Positions 23,906 to 45,662 are shown, numbered from the stretch's first letter. The stretch is 64,000 bases of DNA from Desulfobaccales bacterium (GCA_052147455.1 JBKQKO010000009.1:6699-70698), one strand, 5' to 3'. Numbers and translations are program-made. The notes: generated by a model from the sequence alone, not told the origin.

Positions 23906-23974
23906 TAGGGTGGGCACAGCCCGCCCTAGGAGATGATCGAAAGAGGGGATTTTCTAGGGCGGCCTGGGGCCGCC
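23906..23974. repeat. REP-like hairpin pair
   Basis: tagggtgggcacagcccgcccta plus ctagggcggcctggggccgcc. The same family occurs at 26034-26055, 36272-36298, 39597-39668, 41767-41831 and 45483-45547. Confidence 0.85.
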
Positions 23975-25981: not shown

Positions 25982-26257
25982 CGGGATAAAAAAGGGCGAC
26001 CCAGCGGGTAGCCCCTACAGGAAGAACCGGATTTATAGGGCGGCCTCTGGCCGCCGCCCAATTGGCGCCCCGCGAACCACCCCTACCCCATACGGCCTCG
26101 GTGGCGAAGGGGATTTAAGTTGTAGGGTGCGTCTTACGCACCACTTTCCAGCGTGGGGCGGGCTTCTCGCTAATCTCAGCTTGCCTCAAGATGAGAGGTC
26201 TTGCGGACGGAAGACTTCCACATTGTACTTTCGATAATTTTTTTTCAAATAAATCTC

Positions 26258-28116: not shown

Positions 28117-29841
28117 CTAAATAACAATCCCGCTCAAGCGCTCGACCAATATCCTCGCCGTTTGAAACGCCGTGGCAATGCCGGGCAGCCCCACGGTAGC
28201 GCAAGCAAACTCCAGATTGTCGATATCTGGTATGGGGGGCACTTCCCGCAGCACGTTCGCCACATTTTGCTTCCGGCCATAGGCATTGCCTTTTTCAGCT
28301 CCGACGGCTTGATTGATATCCAAGGGTGTGATTGTTTCAGTAAAAATCAGATGTTGGCGCAGCTGCGGGAACCCTATATTCTCAAGTTTATCCAGAATCC
28401 GTTCAGTTAGTCGCGATTTTAGGGATTGATATTCATCCGCGCCTTTGCGCCTGGCATCGCGAGCCTGGGTGAAATTTCCAGGGGCATAAACCACCAGTGA
28501 CTGTATTGCATTATTACGCTCTGTGTAGCCATTACCGTTGGCAGTGGGTGAACTGATATATAACAGCGCAGGATCTTCTGTCATATCCGGATTATCGAAG
28601 TCAACCGCATGAGTACCGGCTTGCCACCAATAGTTTCTTCCGGCCAGCTTTTTAGCAATTGCCGGGTAATCCTTTACTCCAATATATAATCCGCTGAGGG
28701 CATTGGAAGGTTCATATATAAATTTCTCACTATTGCAAGAGTCGATCAGTTTGCATACCATTCTTGGCGGCAGTGTACTAATCACGTAATAAGGCTCGTA
28801 CGTACCCCTGGTCGTTTCTATATGGTCTAGGTTTCCATTCCCAACGGTCAACTTATTGACTTTGGCTCCCTGCTGCACCGTGCCGCCAAATTTTTCGATG
28901 GTCGACGCCAAGCCGTCTATGAGGCTTTTAAACCCATGCCGCGGGTAGAAAGCTCCGGAATGGCAACGCCCGGTAGCGGCCGCATAAACTCCCACAGACA
29001 CCGATGACTCGTTTTCAGCAAACATCCCGCCATGCGCATACAGTAAGCGTCTCGCCTTTTCTGATAGTTGGCAATGATTGAACAGATCTAAGAGAGTCCA
29101 ATCACCCATTTTCTTTAGGAGCCATTTTTCTTTCAGTGAGAAATCACTTGAAAGTAGAATAGCGTTTCTCATCTGCGACCAGCCGTGGAGATAGAGTCCC
29201 CTATCGTAAATAAACTTTGAGCCCCTAAAAAGAACGTCAATACATGAGAAGAATTCTGAGAGTTTTTCATTCTCCTCAGGGAAACGGCCGATCATGGCTG
29301 CCTTAAACTTATCCAACCCCATAGGCACTACTAAGGGAGGGTCATTGCCTAGATACAAATGTTCAAAGGCCTCCTTATCCATCGAGTCGAATGGTATGGC
29401 CTCGTTCAGTCCTAAAAATCTCAAAATCCTATTCCCGACGTCTTTCCCATCGTTGCCGAAATCCCAGACATATTGCGGCCCCGCACAAAACCTCAGTCCA
29501 TTACTCTCGAAACTTCGGGCATGTCCTCCGAGCCAGGTGGGATGTGCTTCTAACACCTGAACCTTATACCCCACCTTAGCCAAAATAGCCCCGGCACACA
29601 GGCCGGTAATGCCACTGCCCAGGATAAAGATCTTATTGGGTTGACCGCCTGGGTTGAACAATGGCAAACGTTCCGCGCGGGCGTAGGCATAGGCTGACCT
29701 CAGAGGCGTAATCAGAGAGGCCAGGGATATGGCTGCGAGCATCTTAAAAAAATCTCTCCTGGAAATACCTAGGGTGTCAGGACTATTCCTACGGTGTCCC
29801 GCGTCAGTATTTATCGCTTCCTCAAAGGCAATTTTAGTCAT
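28117..29841 (-). CDS. FAD-dependent oxidoreductase (amine-oxidase/phytoene-desaturase-like) with twin-arginine signal
   Basis: SRRDFFKMLAAISLASL Tat motif, then dinucleotide fold IFILGSGITGLCAGAILAKVGYKVQVLE. G+C is lower than the flanks. Confidence 0.7.
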   Translation of the reverse strand: MTKIAFEEAINTDAGHRRNSPDTLGISRRDFFKMLAAISLASLITPLRSAYAYARAERLPLFNPGGQPNKIFILGSGITGLCAGAILAKVGYKVQVLEAHPTWLGGHARSFESNGLRFCAGPQYVWDFGNDGKDVGNRILRFLGLNEAIPFDSMDKEAFEHLYLGNDPPLVVPMGLDKFKAAMIGRFPEENEKLSEFFSCIDVLFRGSKFIYDRGLYLHGWSQMRNAILLSSDFSLKEKWLLKKMGDWTLLDLFNHCQLSEKARRLLYAHGGMFAENESSVSVGVYAAATGRCHSGAFYPRHGFKSLIDGLASTIEKFGGTVQQGAKVNKLTVGNGNLDHIETTRGTYEPYYVISTLPPRMVCKLIDSCNSEKFIYEPSNALSGLYIGVKDYPAIAKKLAGRNYWWQAGTHAVDFDNPDMTEDPALLYISSPTANGNGYTERNNAIQSLVVYAPGNFTQARDARRKGADEYQSLKSRLTERILDKLENIGFPQLRQHLIFTETITPLDINQAVGAEKGNAYGRKQNVANVLREVPPIPDIDNLEFACATVGLPGIATAFQTARILVERLSGIVI

Positions 29842-29865
29842 ACAAATAACCTAACAGGCGGCGGT

Positions 29866-31044
29866 TCACTGGAGAATACTCTTATATGTAGTAACTAATT
29901 GGACCAATTGTGATATTGGCACCAGCGCACTTACTAAAAAACCGGCTATGTATATAAATCCGGAACGAGAATCGAAAGGCCAGGTGCAGAGGCTGTTCAC
30001 CTTTGCATGCATATCGGTCAGGTGCGTGTAATGCATTACCCCCAAACTGAACTGCTGAAAATCTTTGGGGTCACTCGGATTTAATAACTTGTCTAAGTTA
30101 CTTCGAAGGCTAACGCAACTTTTTAATAGGAGAAGATCCTGGCTGGACTTAAGTTTTTCCAACATGTGGTGTAACTTTAGCATGGGGATCAATAAAACGC
30201 TGATTGCCGCGAAATGAGGGAAGGCCATCCAGGCATATATGGAAAATTTGACTAGATCCTGTGTTCTATGGGTCCAGGGGGATAGATATATATATAGTGA
30301 AATCAACACTCCCACCGACAGACTGGTGATGGAAAAATGCAGCAGATTGTTGCCGATTATGGAGATTCCGCCACATTTATCCGGCGCCCGATAGTTTATC
30401 GCAATTTTATCTTGGCCACTAAAGGTGTTGATCATTTTTACGACGCCTACTATTCCGCACACTGCCATGCCACAGATAAATCCTTCCACAAAAAACTGCA
30501 GTATAATCGATGCTACTAAAAATGGATTTGTATACCATATCCCATATGCTACCCCGAAGGCTGTGTTAAGGAATCCAAAAAATATACCATAAAACAATAA
30601 ATTCTTATTTGACAGTGTCGCTTCCAGTATCCTGACAATCGTTGTATGAAAATCTTCGGATTCTAATTCATTAAAGGTAAATAGGTTAAGGGTTAACTTC
30701 CGCAACTTTTTGGTGTTCCAAACGACTAATAGCAAGGTGTAACCTATCATTAAGCTTAACATCCAACTTCTATCTGCAAATGTATCTGCCTTGAATAATA
30801 TACCCAGACCCATATGTAATATCAAAAATGGCAGGCAAAAAAGCAGGCTACTCAGGTAATACGGCATCTTGAGCAGGTTGATGAAGGTCTCATAAAATGG
30901 TATTATCTGACTCTTTAAATATGTATCAATACTATCCCTTTTGGCGTCTGCATGCAGTAATATATTGGAAGAGCAGTGTGGGCAAAAAAGCCACTCTTTT
31001 CTGATTTCCATCTTACACTTGATACACAAACTATCTTCCACCAT
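29866..31044 (-). CDS. Polytopic membrane protein with N-terminal zinc-ribbon
   Basis: CIKCKMEIRKEWLFCPHCSS followed by many hydrophobic spans. AT-rich codon usage; no family recognised. Confidence 0.5.
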   Translation of the reverse strand: MVEDSLCIKCKMEIRKEWLFCPHCSSNILLHADAKRDSIDTYLKSQIIPFYETFINLLKMPYYLSSLLFCLPFLILHMGLGILFKADTFADRSWMLSLMIGYTLLLVVWNTKKLRKLTLNLFTFNELESEDFHTTIVRILEATLSNKNLLFYGIFFGFLNTAFGVAYGIWYTNPFLVASIILQFFVEGFICGMAVCGIVGVVKMINTFSGQDKIAINYRAPDKCGGISIIGNNLLHFSITSLSVGVLISLYIYLSPWTHRTQDLVKFSIYAWMAFPHFAAISVLLIPMLKLHHMLEKLKSSQDLLLLKSCVSLRSNLDKLLNPSDPKDFQQFSLGVMHYTHLTDMHAKVNSLCTWPFDSRSGFIYIAGFLVSALVPISQLVQLVTTYKSILQ

Positions 31045-36228: not shown

Positions 36229-36349
36229 TTATAAAACGCCATAGTAGTACAGGCACATAGCCTGTTCTCATTTATTGGGCGGCCTGCGGCCGCCATAATT
36301 TTTTGTTCATTACATGCCTTATGGTCTGAAGGAACGAGTGGAAAGCGAA

Positions 36350-37048
36350 TCATAAAGTATCTGTTGTAATTTTAATACCTTTTTTAATGAAATTTCGCAT
36401 TTTATTGGGGCCTTCTGGAGATAAACCGCATTCCTGCATCTCGTGGTACCAGTTCTCCAATGCTTGTTGCATCCACCTCATATCCTTTTTCCAGACAGGT
36501 CCCAAATGTTTAATCCATAATTCTATTTCTTTTTCGGTGATCTCTTTTTTAGATATAAATATTTTAGCTAAATAAATTACCATCTTTGCAATGCCTTCAT
36601 CAATAACTTCTTCAGGAATTGACCAGTGGGCATTACCTAAACAATCTGTATAAAAACCAATTTGCTTTAAATTATCCAAAATATAAGGATGTTCGGCATC
36701 TTCTTTGAACATCGGAAGGAAATCATCGAGTTTCCTTGCACCAGCTTTAACCATATCCATAAGAACCCAAGCGACATTCTTTTTTGTGTGGGACCGATAA
36801 TCTTTCCAAGCTTCTTTGAGCTCTTTGTCATTTCTTGCGACTGATAATCCTCTTAAAATTGATTCCTTTCCAGACTCTTCAATGGATAAAATTGCTAAGC
36901 TTGTAGCAGTCGCATACCTTTTGTTTTCAATCAATAATTCTGCTTCTTCAGCAAGTCTCCTCGCGTTTCTAGCTGCCGCATTCATTCCTTCAGCTATCTG
37001 TGCGGCGGATAATTCACCTTTGTAATGATTTAGTTTTCTCTCGCTCAT
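36350..37048 (-). CDS. AbiV-like HEPN abortive-infection protein
   Basis: NAAARNARRLAEEAELLIENKRYATATSLAILSIEESGKESIL matches my recollection of the AbiV-family N-terminal helical pattern. Strongly AT-rich single-gene insert. Confidence 0.55.
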   Translation of the reverse strand: MSERKLNHYKGELSAAQIAEGMNAAARNARRLAEEAELLIENKRYATATSLAILSIEESGKESILRGLSVARNDKELKEAWKDYRSHTKKNVAWVLMDMVKAGARKLDDFLPMFKEDAEHPYILDNLKQIGFYTDCLGNAHWSIPEEVIDEGIAKMVIYLAKIFISKKEITEKEIELWIKHLGPVWKKDMRWMQQALENWYHEMQECGLSPEGPNKMRNFIKKGIKITTDTL

Positions 37049-39596: not shown

Positions 39597-39668
39597 AAGG
39601 CGGCGGGCACAGCCCGCCCTGGGCGTGGGCAGGCCAGAGGTGATTTTATAGGGCGGCCTGTGGCCGCC
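39597..39668. repeat. REP-like hairpin pair
   Basis: aaggcggcgggcacagcccgccct ... tatagggcggcctgtggccgcc. Confidence 0.85.
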
Positions 39669-41731: not shown

Positions 41732-41831
41732 AGGTTGTGGGACGAGACCCTTACGGCCCTCCTTAACGCTTCCAACTTATAGGGCGGCCTGTGGCCGCCT
41801 CCCATGGGGCGCCCCAAAGCGGCGGGCGCAG
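41732..41831 (+). repeat. Island-flanking direct repeat, left copy
   Basis: acgagacccttacggccctccttaacgcttccaacttatagggcggcctgtggccgcctcccatggggcgccccaaagcggcgggcgcagcccgccctat. About 85 % identical by eye to 45447-45547, same orientation. Confidence 0.9.
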
Positions 41832-41887
41832 CCCGCCCTATTTTGAGCTGCAAGATTTAAGAGATTGTGGCGGTGTTTGGTCGGCTC

Positions 41888-42210: not shown

Positions 42211-43179
42211 TCACACCGAGTTCTTTTCTATCATGCTTAGAAATTCGCTTAGGGGGAGCATACAGATGCCATGCAATCCATAACCGGCAAAGCTTGCTAC
42301 AAAAAATCTCAAGTCAAAACGCTCCGACTGTCCGTATTCGACAATTTCAGGATGTTTGAGTATGTTTATTAGTTTTGGACTACGCGGATTGTGATTGGCC
42401 AACAGAAAGATCACTTCAGGTGGTTTATCTTTAGATAGCTTAAGTTTTGTGAAGTTGCTAGACCGATTGAACCGGAGCAATTCTAAATCAGCGAGTTGCT
42501 CGAACTGCGCCTCCATCGTCTCTAACAATGAATTATAGCGTTCACTCGAAATAAATGAATCAATGTCTTTCAAATGTTCGAGTAATCCAGAGATACCACC
42601 AAGCGCAGCATCAGCATATTTCATCTCCATCAAAGCCGCTTTACAGTTGCTACCATCTTTGCGTTCCTTTGCAAGCCAGCGTATTCCTAGCATATCAAAG
42701 CGAGCGCCAAGACCTGAATCGGCAAACTCAATGTCTGTAATAAAATACTCACTTTCATTTGAAATTGTCGAGTAGTTGTTCTCCCGGGCAACCAACTGCT
42801 GGAACTCCCGCTCCGGCTTCTCACGAGTAGTTGCGAAATAGCAGTCCATAATTTCCTTAAGAAATGGGATTGCGTCAATCCATGTCCTAACATGCACAGG
42901 CCCATCGAGGGTATCTGGAAGATCGGGAAGAGGAAGATAATCCTCGCATGTGCCTTCGTATTTCGGATCAAAAGATGCCCGGTATGATTGCTTCGCCGAA
43001 TTGTATTTAACCTTGAGAATATTGCCGCCCCGATAGTAGATATTGATATAATTGTCTCGAATAGCAAGCATGAGTGTGTCATCTCGCTGCACTCGTTTGA
43101 GTATCGGGTGAAGCAGACCTTTATCCTCCAGGTCATGCATAAAAGTTTTGGATAGTTTTCTAATGTTAATCTTATCCAT
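42211..43179 (-). CDS. Uncharacterised protein with a PD-(D/E)XK-like nuclease core
   Basis: EREFQQLVAREN...ARFDMLGIRW...KAALMEMKYAD gives the E / D / E-x-K order. Start taken at MDKINIRK (43179) behind GGAGGA. Confidence 0.55.
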   Translation of the reverse strand: MDKINIRKLSKTFMHDLEDKGLLHPILKRVQRDDTLMLAIRDNYINIYYRGGNILKVKYNSAKQSYRASFDPKYEGTCEDYLPLPDLPDTLDGPVHVRTWIDAIPFLKEIMDCYFATTREKPEREFQQLVARENNYSTISNESEYFITDIEFADSGLGARFDMLGIRWLAKERKDGSNCKAALMEMKYADAALGGISGLLEHLKDIDSFISSERYNSLLETMEAQFEQLADLELLRFNRSSNFTKLKLSKDKPPEVIFLLANHNPRSPKLINILKHPEIVEYGQSERFDLRFFVASFAGYGLHGICMLPLSEFLSMIEKNSV

Positions 43180-43202
43180 CCCAATTCCTCCATGAATATA
43201 AT

Positions 43203-44447
43203 TTATTCGACACCCCACCAGACGCCGTCTTCCTTAATCTTCACCTTATCAAAAAACTCCGGAAAGCGTCCCGGTTCAAACGAATGGATCGGGACCACCG
43301 TCCTGGCGTTGATTGCTCTAGCCAAGCGCTTGAGGTCCGAAATAGAGGCGTGACCGGATGTGTGTATCTGGCTCATGGGAATCCTATGATAATCTAGCCA
43401 ATTAAGAAAGGGGAATATTGACTCCTTCTCCAGATATCCTCCCCAAAGGGAGTAGATAAGCCCGGCTTCCTGCAAACACCCGGCCTGTTCCAGGTCAGTC
43501 GCCATGGAGGGCCGAAAGAGCATGGTGGCATGGGCAGCTATTTCCCGTAATTCCTTTGGAAAAATTCGATTCTTTTTATAGATTTCCAGCAGATGAAAGA
43601 GCTGTTTTCTCTTGACCAGCCGCCGCTGCCACTGCGGAATAAAAACCCGGACGCCGGGCCAATCGCCTTGGGGGATATGAGGATTTTCCGTGGCCCGGAG
43701 GATTACCGCGGTATAGAGGTCGATGATCATTTGGCGCTGGCTTTGCTTGCAGGCTCGAAAAACGGTGACGATACGGTCGATATTTTGGCCGGAGCAATAG
43801 ACCAAGACCATGCCTTTGGTAGATTTCATCTCCTTTATAAAACGGACCTCTAATTCTCTTTCCGTGGGGAATCGTCCCTCTGCCTTCAGGCGCCCGATCG
43901 TGGAGCCTTCCAGGAGCAAAACATCCACATCCTTGGGGGACTTACGTACCAGCCTTTCAAAGAGGGTAGCCTTGGCGCCATGCGCTCGCAGGTCTCCGGT
44001 ATAAAACAGGCGCTTGTTATCGGCGGCAACCAGAAAGGCATAAGCATCATAAGCTGAATGATCAATCAGGTAAGGGGTTATCTCAAAAGGACCCACTTGC
44101 ATTGGTTCCAGGTCCTTCAAGTAGATTGCATTCAGGAACGTGGCCCCCGCAGGGATGAAGTTGGCGGCAGCGTCAAGAATGCGGCTGGCGGCAGCGCCGA
44201 CAAAAATAGGCAGATCAAGCCGCAAGTATTTTGCCAGGCCGTAATGATCCTGGTGGGGGTGGGAGATCACCACTCCCAAAAGGGTTTCATCCTTTTTCCT
44301 GAATCCCGACACTGGAGGCAGCAACGCCTCCGTATCCGGGGCGTCGAGAGGCAGGCCCACTTCCAGAACCAGGCGGTTTCCTTGGGCTTCAATCTCGACG
44401 CAGGTGCCCCCGATCTCCTGGGTCCCCCTATGGATGCACACCCTCAT
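43203..44447 (-). CDS. Beta-CASP-type metallo-beta-lactamase-fold nuclease
   Basis: VVISHPHQDHYG (HxHxDH), LIDHSAYDAY, YTGDL, VLLLEGSTIG (motif A), HTSGHAS (motif B), VVPIHSFE (motif C). Confidence 0.8.
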   Translation of the reverse strand: MRVCIHRGTQEIGGTCVEIEAQGNRLVLEVGLPLDAPDTEALLPPVSGFRKKDETLLGVVISHPHQDHYGLAKYLRLDLPIFVGAAASRILDAAANFIPAGATFLNAIYLKDLEPMQVGPFEITPYLIDHSAYDAYAFLVAADNKRLFYTGDLRAHGAKATLFERLVRKSPKDVDVLLLEGSTIGRLKAEGRFPTERELEVRFIKEMKSTKGMVLVYCSGQNIDRIVTVFRACKQSQRQMIIDLYTAVILRATENPHIPQGDWPGVRVFIPQWQRRLVKRKQLFHLLEIYKKNRIFPKELREIAAHATMLFRPSMATDLEQAGCLQEAGLIYSLWGGYLEKESIFPFLNWLDYHRIPMSQIHTSGHASISDLKRLARAINARTVVPIHSFEPGRFPEFFDKVKIKEDGVWWGVE

Positions 44448-44835: not shown

Positions 44836-45012
44836 AGCTATATCATCGTCTCCCGAATCAAGGCGGGTTTGTCTTTTTAATTGTGCTCGCGTACCATGGT
44901 GACGGCAACATACTATATATTCAAAATTGGAGCCGAGAAATTTACACTTGCAGAAACTTTTTTCAAATTGTTTTAATCGGAGGTGAGAAATGAAGATTTA
45001 GAGCTAATCCCC

Positions 45013-45351
45013 TTATCGTGTAAAAGGCTGTGAATCCGCGCTCTGTTTCTTCATTTGCTTTGCCAATGTCGGCAGGTCCTTGATCGTTTCCCCGGATTTC
45101 TGCTCGGCAAGCCGCAGTTCATAGAGCTTTTGCAGGTTCAGCCAGAACTCCAGGCTGGTCCCGAAGAAATGGCCCAGGCGCAAGGCCGTGTCGCCGGTCA
45201 CGGCGCGCTGGCCGTTCAGGATTTCGGTTATGCGGTTGGTGGGCACCTTGAGCTGGCGCGCCAATGCCGCGGCGCTCATGTCCAGCCCTTCAAGTTGTGC
45301 GGCGAGATGTTCGCCGGGATGTATGGCACTGCGTCCCATAATGCACCTCAT
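45013..45351 (-). CDS. higA: HigA-family antitoxin (XRE-type HTH)
   Basis: IHPGEHLAAQLEGLDMSAAALARQLKVPTNRITEILNGQRAVTGDTALRLGHFFGTSLEFWLNLQ. Its ATG directly follows the higB-remnant stop. Confidence 0.85.
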   Translation of the reverse strand: MRCIMGRSAIHPGEHLAAQLEGLDMSAAALARQLKVPTNRITEILNGQRAVTGDTALRLGHFFGTSLEFWLNLQKLYELRLAEQKSGETIKDLPTLAKQMKKQSADSQPFTR

Positions 45352-45481
45352 TCAGTGGTAATCGACGATTTCAACATTTACCGGCCCCGGCGTGCCTTTC
45401 GGCCACTCGAAACAAATCCGCCATTGGTCATTTATGCGGATGGTATACGAGACCCTTGCGATCACCCTTAAGCGCTTCCAA
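45352..45481 (-). pseudogene. higB: HigB toxin remnant (5'-truncated and out of frame)
   Basis: One frame reads LEALKGDRKGL. The adjacent frame reads YTIRINDQWRICFEWPKGTPGPVNVEIVDYH*. There is no N-terminal half, and REP DNA lies immediately upstream. Confidence 0.75.
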
Positions 45482-45547
45482 GTTATAGGGCGGCCTGTGG
45501 CCGCCTCCCATTGGGCTAGCTAAAGCGGCGGGCACAGCCCGCCCTAT
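45447..45547 (+). repeat. Island-flanking direct repeat, right copy
   Basis: acgagacccttgcgatcacccttaagcgcttccaagttatagggcggcctgtggccgcctcccattgggctagctaaagcggcgggcacagcccgccctat. Confidence 0.9.
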
Positions 45548-45662
45548 AAGCGTGTATTGACCGAAGCTCACAATCATTGTTCTAAGATATAAGGTAAATT
45601 ATGCGTTACGTCCAGGATAATATGAAATAAAAACCGCAAACCGCAAAACCGAAAACCATCCT

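Follow-up and report, generated by a model that had tools for sequence, protein, structure and literature searches.

The question raised by this locus is whether two adjacent genes on the minus strand of a 64,000-nucleotide (nt) stretch of DNA from a Desulfobaccales bacterium (GCA_052147455.1, JBKQKO010000009.1:6699-70698; the whole of this stretch is referred to below as the window) form a functional unit and, if they do, what that unit is for. The genes occupy positions 42,211 to 44,447. The first encodes a metallo-beta-lactamase (MBL) nuclease of the beta-CASP type and the second an unannotated protein, which we call P2. An earlier note, written from the sequence alone, had read the pair as a candidate two-nuclease defence module. 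The module has turned out to be genuine and mobile; that it serves in defence and that P2 is a nuclease we infer. Our favoured explanation, which we consider somewhat more probable than improbable, is a two-nuclease module that is self-contained and moves horizontally, and that most likely provides innate defence against phages or plasmids. The evidence for the unit itself is presented first, followed by the arguments concerning its role.

The complete set of beta-CASP motifs that had been read in the first open reading frame (ORF) is indeed there, and all of the listed motifs are invariant in 35 homologues. The conserved positions include the metal-site residues H63, H65, D67, H68, D129-H130 and D152 as well as beta-CASP motifs A, B and C, represented by E180, H362/H366 (HTSGHA) and H388 (PIHS). 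In Pfam the protein matches Lactamase_B_2 (5e-13) and RMMBL (2.6e-5). When a profile of the family was compared with the PDB, the best matches were 2az4, the EF2904 protein of Enterococcus faecalis (6e-29), and RNase J (2e-20). A Foldseek search with an AlphaFold (AF2) model of the MBL (pLDDT 89) returned the same two proteins, 2az4 with a template-modelling (TM) score of 0.74 and E 2e-25 and RNase J with a TM score of ~0.71, and full-length structural alignments to 2az4, RNase J and CPSF-73 gave TM scores of 0.65-0.74. Taking structure and sequence together, the relatives of this protein are RNase J, aCPSF, CPSF-73 and Integrator 11.

Homologues of the MBL, which fall into more than 5,700 clusters, are annotated by JGI as 'ribonuclease J'. 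The RNase J family models score the window protein far below their cut-offs (TIGR00649, 70.7 bits, 8e-20, against 400; NF047419, 48.9 bits against 820). It has 414 residues and no RNase J C-terminal dimerisation domain, RNase J having a total length of ~555 residues, and the sequence alignments to RNase J chains span residues 2-243 only. The protein belongs to the beta-CASP family, in which the uncharacterised EF2904 is its nearest relative, and it falls outside the RNase J orthologous group; the automatic labels on MBL genes of ~414 residues in islands such as this one are probably wrong. By analogy with RNase J and EF2904-like proteins, its substrate may be RNA.

P2 has no match in Pfam (E<0.1), NCBIfam or PHROGs, and none among PDB sequences, either with the single sequence or with a profile at E<10; PADLOC returned PDC-S02 alone, with E 0.005 over 54 residues. 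The family is a large one, with more than 1,254 homologues in a database clustered at 90% identity and 1,576 clusters at 50% identity, and its members remain ~60% identical across distant phyla (range 45-64%, archaea included). The ORF and its motifs EREFQ, RFDML and EMKY are present as the earlier note had them, and their key residues are invariant in 34 sequences, in which E123/E125, D149/E151, D162, E185-x-K187-Y188 and N262-H-N-P-R266 do not vary. These residues follow an N-terminal alpha/beta domain of ~90 residues with the motif AIRxxYINIYYRGGN. In an AF2 model of P2 (pLDDT 88, pTM 0.88) a helix at 122-135 is followed by strands at 145-154, 159-167 (carrying D162) and 180-188 (carrying E185 and K187), a helix at 195-210 and a strand at 255-261, and this predicted order of secondary-structure elements fits the alpha-beta-beta-beta-alpha-beta core of PD-(D/E)XK nucleases. 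Foldseek searches with the model gave nothing significant (best E 0.075 in the PDB and 0.04 in BFVD, a viral match; TM scores of at most 0.26), and McrC and PaqCI appeared in the list only at E 0.4-1 with a TM score of 0.23. The earlier assignment to the PD-(D/E)XK group is therefore supported by motif order, invariant residues and predicted topology but by no significant profile or structural match, so that the nuclease nature of P2 is proposed at the level of motifs and the protein is best described as PD-(D/E)XK-like. The more specific suggestion of a NucS/DUF91- or Shedu-like layout was not borne out by the profile searches, in which P2 matches none of the SduA_C, NucS_C and Mrr models. 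One P2 homologue of 525 residues (P0282) carries an N-terminal DUF6508 domain (1.4e-16), and several others have extensions of 130-200 residues with no Pfam match.

Co-occurrence of the two genes across genomes had been named beforehand as a point on which the proposal of a module could fail. One genome per GTDB species was scanned for P2, and the best 80 of 199 loci were taken. In 57 of these 80 an intact MBL ORF adjoins P2, nearly always immediately upstream, and several further loci contain partial or truncated MBL matches. At most homologous loci there is either no gap at all between the end of the MBL gene and the beginning of P2, or an overlap of 4 nt. The corresponding gap in the window is 23 nt rather than the 24 given earlier, since the MBL stop codon, TAA at 43205-43203, ends at 43203 and the P2 ATG lies at 43179; an alternative GTG start at 43218 would yield a protein of 335 residues, and the homologues begin at the position equivalent to the ATG. 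In Marinospirillum minutulum DSM 6287 the coupling is carried to its limit, with the MBL, a linker of ~30 residues and P2 forming a single ORF of 763 residues (L079 6660-8951). P2 is also found fused to a DEDDh RNase_T exonuclease (P0247), and in a Gallionella metagenome-assembled genome a separate DEDDh gene directly follows it (L022 8991-9512). The recurrent associates of P2, the MBL and the DEDDh RNase_T protein, are therefore exonucleases. All-versus-all clustering of the flanking ORFs revealed no third recurrent gene. These data establish the MBL and P2 as a genuine conserved module.

Unexpectedly, the nearest relatives of the window MBL, which are 82-91% identical to it, do not lie beside P2. 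Sister Desulfobaccales contigs use the same insertion site as the window. Comparison of the window with two of them (L081 and L089) reveals 88-92% DNA identity through the flanks, through the gene for a cysteine-rich protein that precedes the MBL gene, and through the MBL gene itself up to position 43201. Over 43200-42204, exactly the ribosome-binding site and P2, there is no detectable DNA identity in the sister contigs. Identity resumes in L081 at 42203, in the DUF6150 gene downstream of P2 (79.5%); L088 and L089 have no DUF6150 segment, and identity is back at 41841, at a palindromic repeat and the right-hand flank. The replacement gene encodes a protein of 320 residues that has only the N-terminal NIYYxG region in common with P2 (26% identity over 100 residues). 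Another close relative of the MBL (82%) is followed by an unrelated protein of 232 residues. Across 143 MBLs, the identities of MBL and partner are decoupled: MBLs that are 84-90% identical to that of the window have partners that are ~20% identical to P2, and the nearest homologues of P2 (61%) are paired with MBLs that are 51% identical.

A survey of the co-directional downstream genes at 80 metagenomic MBL loci extends this picture. According to BLAST and hhalign comparisons, related MBLs are accompanied by several, at least seven, mutually unrelated partner families, and some MBLs carry unrelated D...ELK domains fused at their C-terminus. Representatives of all the partner families possess a D...E-x-K motif, and nothing but the residues E...D...E-l-K is invariant in the two largest, which comprise 16 and 7 sequences. 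When P2 was compared with the other partner clusters by hhalign, the probability was below 2% except for cluster 20 (7.6%) and cluster 12, which is of the L106/L143 type (35%). Among ten alternative partners compared with Pfam, weak HSDR_N, NucS_C and SduA_C matches occurred in one family only, the L107 type, which matched SduA_C and NucS_C at E 0.009-0.05. The real unit is a conserved MBL core plus an interchangeable partner cassette, and P2 is one partner family.

The position upstream of the core is also variable. Many MBLs of the window clade have an upstream gene that overlaps the MBL start by 4 nt and differs from locus to locus, encoding a protein of 135 residues, one of 224 residues or a SurE homologue. 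At a prophage end (L187/L188 6240-9017) the SurE-family nucleotidase gene, with this same 4-nt overlap, forms a three-gene operon with the MBL and its partner. In the window this slot is filled by the gene for the cysteine-rich protein. Four MBL loci on soil/peat metagenome contigs (L123, L126, L130 and L133) have no co-directional partner; in each of them the gene for a conserved 472-residue protein (MTDIEKARQLFRDAGLAFPTIPEEL...) lies convergent to the MBL gene, ~20 nt beyond its stop, and this protein is a possible alternative partner. Two clusters of downstream ORFs in the survey (2 and 4) were discarded as spurious overlapping ORFs in GC-rich contigs, the real neighbour being a convergently encoded protein of 472 or 337 residues.

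Both the distribution of the module and its surroundings bear on its role. The best 80 P2 loci are spread patchily over ~15 bacterial phyla and the Bathyarchaeota, Crenarchaeota and Nanoarchaeota, and both this patchiness and the horizontal transfer of the module are clear. Neither protein has a match in 50,697 phage genomes; a relative of the MBL occurs on seven IMG/VR contigs only and the MBL is present on 10 plasmids, and P2 is absent from the plasmids in PLSDB. The pair does not sit mainly in conserved housekeeping operons, another outcome on which the proposal had been made to depend. Its contexts are variable and involve mobile-element, restriction and defence genes: GmrSD lies near the pair at one locus (L175), and RVT_1, HTH_17, resolvase, Mrr_cat and SLFN_AlbA_2 domains are encoded in others (L178-180); transposase and conjugation genes accompany some MBL loci; a Rhizobium plasmid locus close to a MobF relaxase gene includes N6 and Eco57I-type methylases, a GIY-YIG nuclease and TcmP/DUF5131; an AddAB-like pair lies near the MBL on an Ochrobactrum plasmid; a WYL-WCX regulator occurs with PDDEXK_4 (L185); and the prophage end mentioned above (L187) bears a serine recombinase and a Prok-E2/ThiF/RelA_SpoT cluster. 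P2 genes that have no MBL are found directly after HsdR (L024), after HsdR and GmrSD (L032), beside Dcm and Vsr (L070) and beside Nmad3 (L020). Among 150 neighbours, the PADLOC matches included Mokosh, AbiEi, MTase_II, Bunzi and PDC-S01, PDC-S27 and PDC-S48. The association with defence loci is suggestive, and a genomic context of this kind would be consistent with a role in defence.

On these grounds we propose the following scheme. P2, acting as a PD-(D/E)XK-type endonuclease, would recognise and cut foreign nucleic acid and leave 5'-phosphate ends. The RNase J/EF2904-like beta-CASP enzyme would then load on the new 5'-phosphate ends and degrade the target in the 5'-to-3' direction. RNase J belongs to a family of 5'-phosphate-dependent exo- and endonucleases and has a 5'-monophosphate pocket for its 5'-to-3' exonuclease action. 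The MBL and its partner would probably act as a complex, for which the conserved N-terminal domain of the partner is a candidate docking domain. Complex formation, substrate and order of action are what we infer here. That cutting is followed by degradation is supported by the association of P2 with two exonuclease folds (beta-CASP and DEDDh), by the translational coupling and by the natural fusion. In this scheme the MBL would be the conserved engine and the partner gene would be exchanged as a cassette, as in an arms race over target specificity or escape from inhibitors; the precise replacement of the cassette fits diversifying selection on recognition or on the evasion of phage inhibitors. 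The argument may be carried further, to a large and undescribed class of prokaryotic immune systems in which a shared RNase J/EF2904-like beta-CASP engine is coupled, by operon structure, translation or fusion, to PD-(D/E)XK-like cassettes that evolve fast and can replace one another. These cassettes, drawn from at least seven unrelated families, would provide target recognition and would be traded between near-identical genomes through precise replacement of the gene. We advance this generalisation tentatively, as it falls just short of being probable.

Several observations weigh against this explanation. No methyltransferase or other self-protection partner recurs in the clustering of flanking ORFs, so that the scheme does not account for the sparing of self. 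RNA is the substrate of all the closest relatives of the MBL, and its motif C is a histidine; consequently the scheme, if taken to mean the 'cut and chew' of DNA, may have the wrong substrate. The fold of P2 is not significantly similar to any known PD-(D/E)XK structure or profile. For ~18 of the 80 P2 genes there is no MBL match in the vicinity, and some MBLs have the convergent 472-residue neighbour in place of a partner, so that pairing is not obligatory. Finally, the 150 sampled neighbours are heterogeneous, comprising 178 Pfam families of which none occurs in more than three proteins, and many of them are ordinary metabolic genes; such highly variable neighbourhoods are typical of a mobile cassette.

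The question of substrate leads to the alternative that survives best, in which the pair is an abortive-infection or toxin-like module directed at RNA. The MBL would be a latent ribonuclease that attacks cellular and phage transcripts when its partner has sensed an infection, and P2 would be its sensor or activator, maybe itself an RNA- or structure-specific nuclease, and not a cutter of DNA. Every significant relative of the MBL is an RNA-acting beta-CASP protein, and a histidine at motif C, here His388, is said to have been linked to RNA-acting members of the family by Callebaut et al. in 2002. The lack of a methylase partner is as in Abi systems, and orphan HigA and AbiV genes are located nearby. 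PD-(D/E)XK proteins, however, are mostly DNases, and the proximity of P2 to HsdR, GmrSD, Dcm/Vsr and Nmad3 points to DNA and its modification. Nor do the relatives of the MBL argue for RNA exclusively, because several RNase J enzymes also digest single-stranded DNA. As no small antitoxin-like partner recurs either, we judge an RNA-directed module of this type to be unlikely.

It is also conceivable, and we think quite improbable, that the pair is cargo that benefits the mobile elements carrying it, through the exclusion of competitors, through help in entry or establishment, or through post-segregational killing. This explanation overlaps with the one we favour, because defence systems themselves typically ride mobile elements. 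In its favour, integrases, resolvases, transposases, relaxases and prophage ends are found next to the pair, and ten plasmids carry the MBL. Many loci, that of the window included, nevertheless lie in a plain chromosomal context with no visible mobile-element genes, and both proteins are absent from deposited phage genomes.

A role in accessory DNA repair would give bacteria a counterpart of the eukaryotic sequence in which an XPF-type nuclease incises at cross-links or blocked ends and the beta-CASP protein SNM1A then resects 5'-to-3'. Such a role would not be expected to produce the precise exchange of cassettes between near-identical genomes, with unrelated partner families, that is described above. 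The MBL is also RNase J-like, no SNM1 or Artemis structure being present among the top 50 Foldseek matches, and the distribution is extremely patchy. Despite the eukaryotic precedent for combining a PD-(D/E)XK-type endonuclease with a beta-CASP exonuclease, and the RecD2- and AddAB-like genes near two of the loci, we find this explanation very doubtful. The idea that the MBL is simply the organism's own RNase J and P2 an unrelated neighbour, for which the JGI labels and the NCBIfam RNase J subfamily match (8e-20) might be adduced, is effectively excluded by a score (70.7 bits) far below the cut-off of 400, the length of 414 residues with no RNase J C-terminal domain, the location in a low-GC insert and sporadic occurrence across phyla and domains of life, and the tight linkage to a P2 that is naturally fused and swapped as a cassette.

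In the window itself, five genes on the minus strand, in the order HigA, cysteine-rich ORF, MBL, P2 and DUF6150, make up an insert of 3.7 kb (Table 1). Its GC content is 44-49% over 42-45 kb, against ~60-67% in the flanks, its edges are two copies of a repeat resembling repetitive extragenic palindromic (REP) elements, and it is flanked by hopanoid-pathway genes and a TPR/DUF6866 pair. The genes other than the MBL and P2 are local passengers that lie outside the general module. The cysteine-rich ORF, reported earlier at this position, is a lineage-specific accessory gene or orphan; it bears the motif CGLCGN...YYCDPC and also precedes the MBL in the sister contigs L081, L088 and L089; among 5.8 billion proteins it has only five homologous clusters, all of them close relatives (77-87% identical), and no family match in Pfam, PADLOC, NCBIfam or PHROGs. 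The 94-residue repeat protein described downstream of P2 is present as well and consists of five [RK][KE]SDAD repeats. Its gene is kept in L081 despite the replacement of the gene upstream, is missing from L088 and L089, and accompanies the pair at none of the other 80 loci, apart from one weak match on the opposite strand in L052. What the earlier note took for a higBA remnant is an intact HigA-family gene with no HigB, there being no ORF of 50 or more residues upstream of it on the minus strand in 45352-45662. L088 and L089 have the HigA gene, whereas L081, whose alignment skips 45010-45634, lacks it, which indicates that HigA is an indel of its own that adjoins a copy of the REP element; possibly it is a local regulator.

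Table 1. Features of the insert and its surroundings, with coordinates in the window.
Feature	Position	Strand	Remarks
HigA-family helix-turn-helix (HTH) gene	45013..45351	-	TIGR02607 2e-25 (NCBIfam); HTH_3 (Pfam)
Cysteine-rich ORF, 110 residues	44503..44835	-	55 nt upstream of MBL gene
Beta-CASP MBL nuclease gene, 414 residues	43203..44447	-	Conserved core of the module
Intergenic spacer, 23 nt	43180..43202	-	GGAGGA at 43186-43191, 6 nt before P2 ATG
P2, 322 residues, unannotated partner	42211..43179	-	Swappable cassette; ATG at 43179, stop at 42211
DUF6150 repeat protein, 94 residues	41888..42172	-	PF19647 1e-19; 38 nt downstream of P2
REP-like palindromic repeat, ~100 nt, right-hand copy	41742..41841	+	Direct repeats D1/D2, 91%/80% identity; internal inverted repeat I4
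REP-like palindromic repeat, ~100 nt, left-hand copy	45447..45547	+	Same repeat analysis
AbiV-family gene, solitary	36350..37048	-	PF18728 4e-44; TIGR04498 1.7e-40
REP core copies	23952-23974, 26033-26055, 36272-36294, 39646-39668, 41777-41799, 45483-45505, 45527-45549		Whole window

The claim that the pair sits in a foreign, AT-richer island with an AbiV-like gene 5 kb away was correct as regards the low GC content and the identity of AbiV. The AbiV gene, however, lies in a patch of its own (43% GC), a single-gene mini-island between an HD-domain-like gene and ispF/ispD, and the ~5 kb that separate this patch from the MBL/P2 insert contain ispD/ispF, a deacetylase gene, DUF6866 and TPR. The 23-nt core of the REP-like element, TTATAGGGCGGCCTGTGGCCGCC, occurs in 7 copies in the window, against 0 expected. 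The ~100-nt repeats that flank the insert were considered as attachment sites and rejected, as this palindromic, REP-like element recurs at 7 scattered places in the window; a match of this element to mir-6131 in Rfam was below threshold and spurious. Since the MBL/P2 island has a copy of the element on either side and AbiV has one at a distance of 56 nt, foreign inserts may land beside REP elements. Another low-GC patch (40-49% GC) extends over 28117-31044 on the minus strand and includes a flavin amine-oxidase-like gene of 574 residues and an ORF of 392 residues with no Pfam match. The low-GC regions at 28-31 kb and 59-63 kb contain metabolic and transport genes and one unannotated ORF.

Should the module prove to be a defence system, it would introduce a new effector chemistry outside type VII CRISPR, that of an RNase J-like beta-CASP 5'-to-3' nuclease, and to our knowledge no earlier defence family outside CRISPR has been built around a beta-CASP effector. 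A function would then be available for ~1,576 unannotated P2-like clusters and for thousands of proteins annotated as "MBL fold metallo-hydrolase / ribonuclease J", and a biological role for the structural-genomics clade of EF2904, possibly including the orphan structure 2az4. The base-pair-precise replacement of a partner beside a conserved core is a clean natural case of modular exchange in an arms race, and the swapped partners are ready-made natural chimeras for asking which of the two proteins sets specificity.

It remains to compare the pair with systems that are already known. EF2904 (2az4) of E. faecalis V583, a structural-genomics beta-CASP protein with no assigned function, matches the MBL best by both profile and structure. 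Like the MBL it is a minimal combination of MBL and beta-CASP domains with no extra domains, it is of similar length (429 versus 414 residues), and the profile covers both its N- and C-terminal parts; the two proteins are, however, only ~20% identical. RNase J shares with the MBL the fold (TM score ~0.71), the metal ligands and the H-x-SGH and P-x-H motifs, whereas the gene described here is accessory and patchily distributed, and lies within a foreign island, where it is linked to the gene for a nuclease-like partner. Hachiman HamA/HamB, Shedu SduA, Gabija and the type IV restriction systems McrBC and GmrSD resemble the pair in having a compact operon with a PD-(D/E)XK-like motif, in residing on islands or mobile elements with a patchy horizontal distribution, and in possessing no cognate methylase. 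They differ from the pair in that the latter has no NTPase or helicase partner, its second protein being a beta-CASP nuclease. A functional analogy is offered by eukaryotic cross-link repair, in which incision by XPF-ERCC1, of the PD-(D/E)XK superfamily, is followed by 5'-to-3' resection by the beta-CASP protein SNM1A; here there is no homology beyond the superfamily level and the biological setting is another.

In bacterial defence loci, MBL-fold proteins have been encountered in other combinations. Three reports describe pairs of an MBL-fold nuclease and a trypsin-like protease that accompany Avs, UG9 and further systems (PMC12799240, PMC9226505, PMC12642450). According to these reports, the MBL-fold hydrolase in these loci, as in ours, is a transferable effector, but there it is activated by the protease, whereas the window MBL has no protease beside it and a PD-(D/E)XK-like partner instead. 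In profile and Foldseek searches RNase J/CPSF-type beta-CASP proteins outrank any solved structure from the protease-coupled systems, a ranking of solved structures and not a direct comparison of the MBLs themselves. The only defence system with a beta-CASP effector whose description we found is type VII CRISPR-Cas, with its nuclease Cas14 (PMC13069675). The cas14_MBL_CASP model of NCBIfam matches only the N-terminus of the window protein (E 0.004; 15.5 bits, the cut-off being 800), and the other five island proteins scanned have no match to Cas families in Pfam, PADLOC or NCBIfam. In PADLOC-DB 2.0, including its PDC candidates, the MBL has no match at E<0.1, and the language-model defence preprint contains no mention of MBL. 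A search of the full-text literature yielded no description of an MBL or beta-CASP protein paired with a PD-(D/E)XK protein, and no family of PADLOC 2.0, Pfam or NCBIfam assigns the pair to a named system, in agreement with the earlier expectation. As a whole, these comparisons indicate that the pair is probably an undescribed combination, one that is built on a known effector superfamily and that possesses an unusual architecture in which the partner can be swapped.

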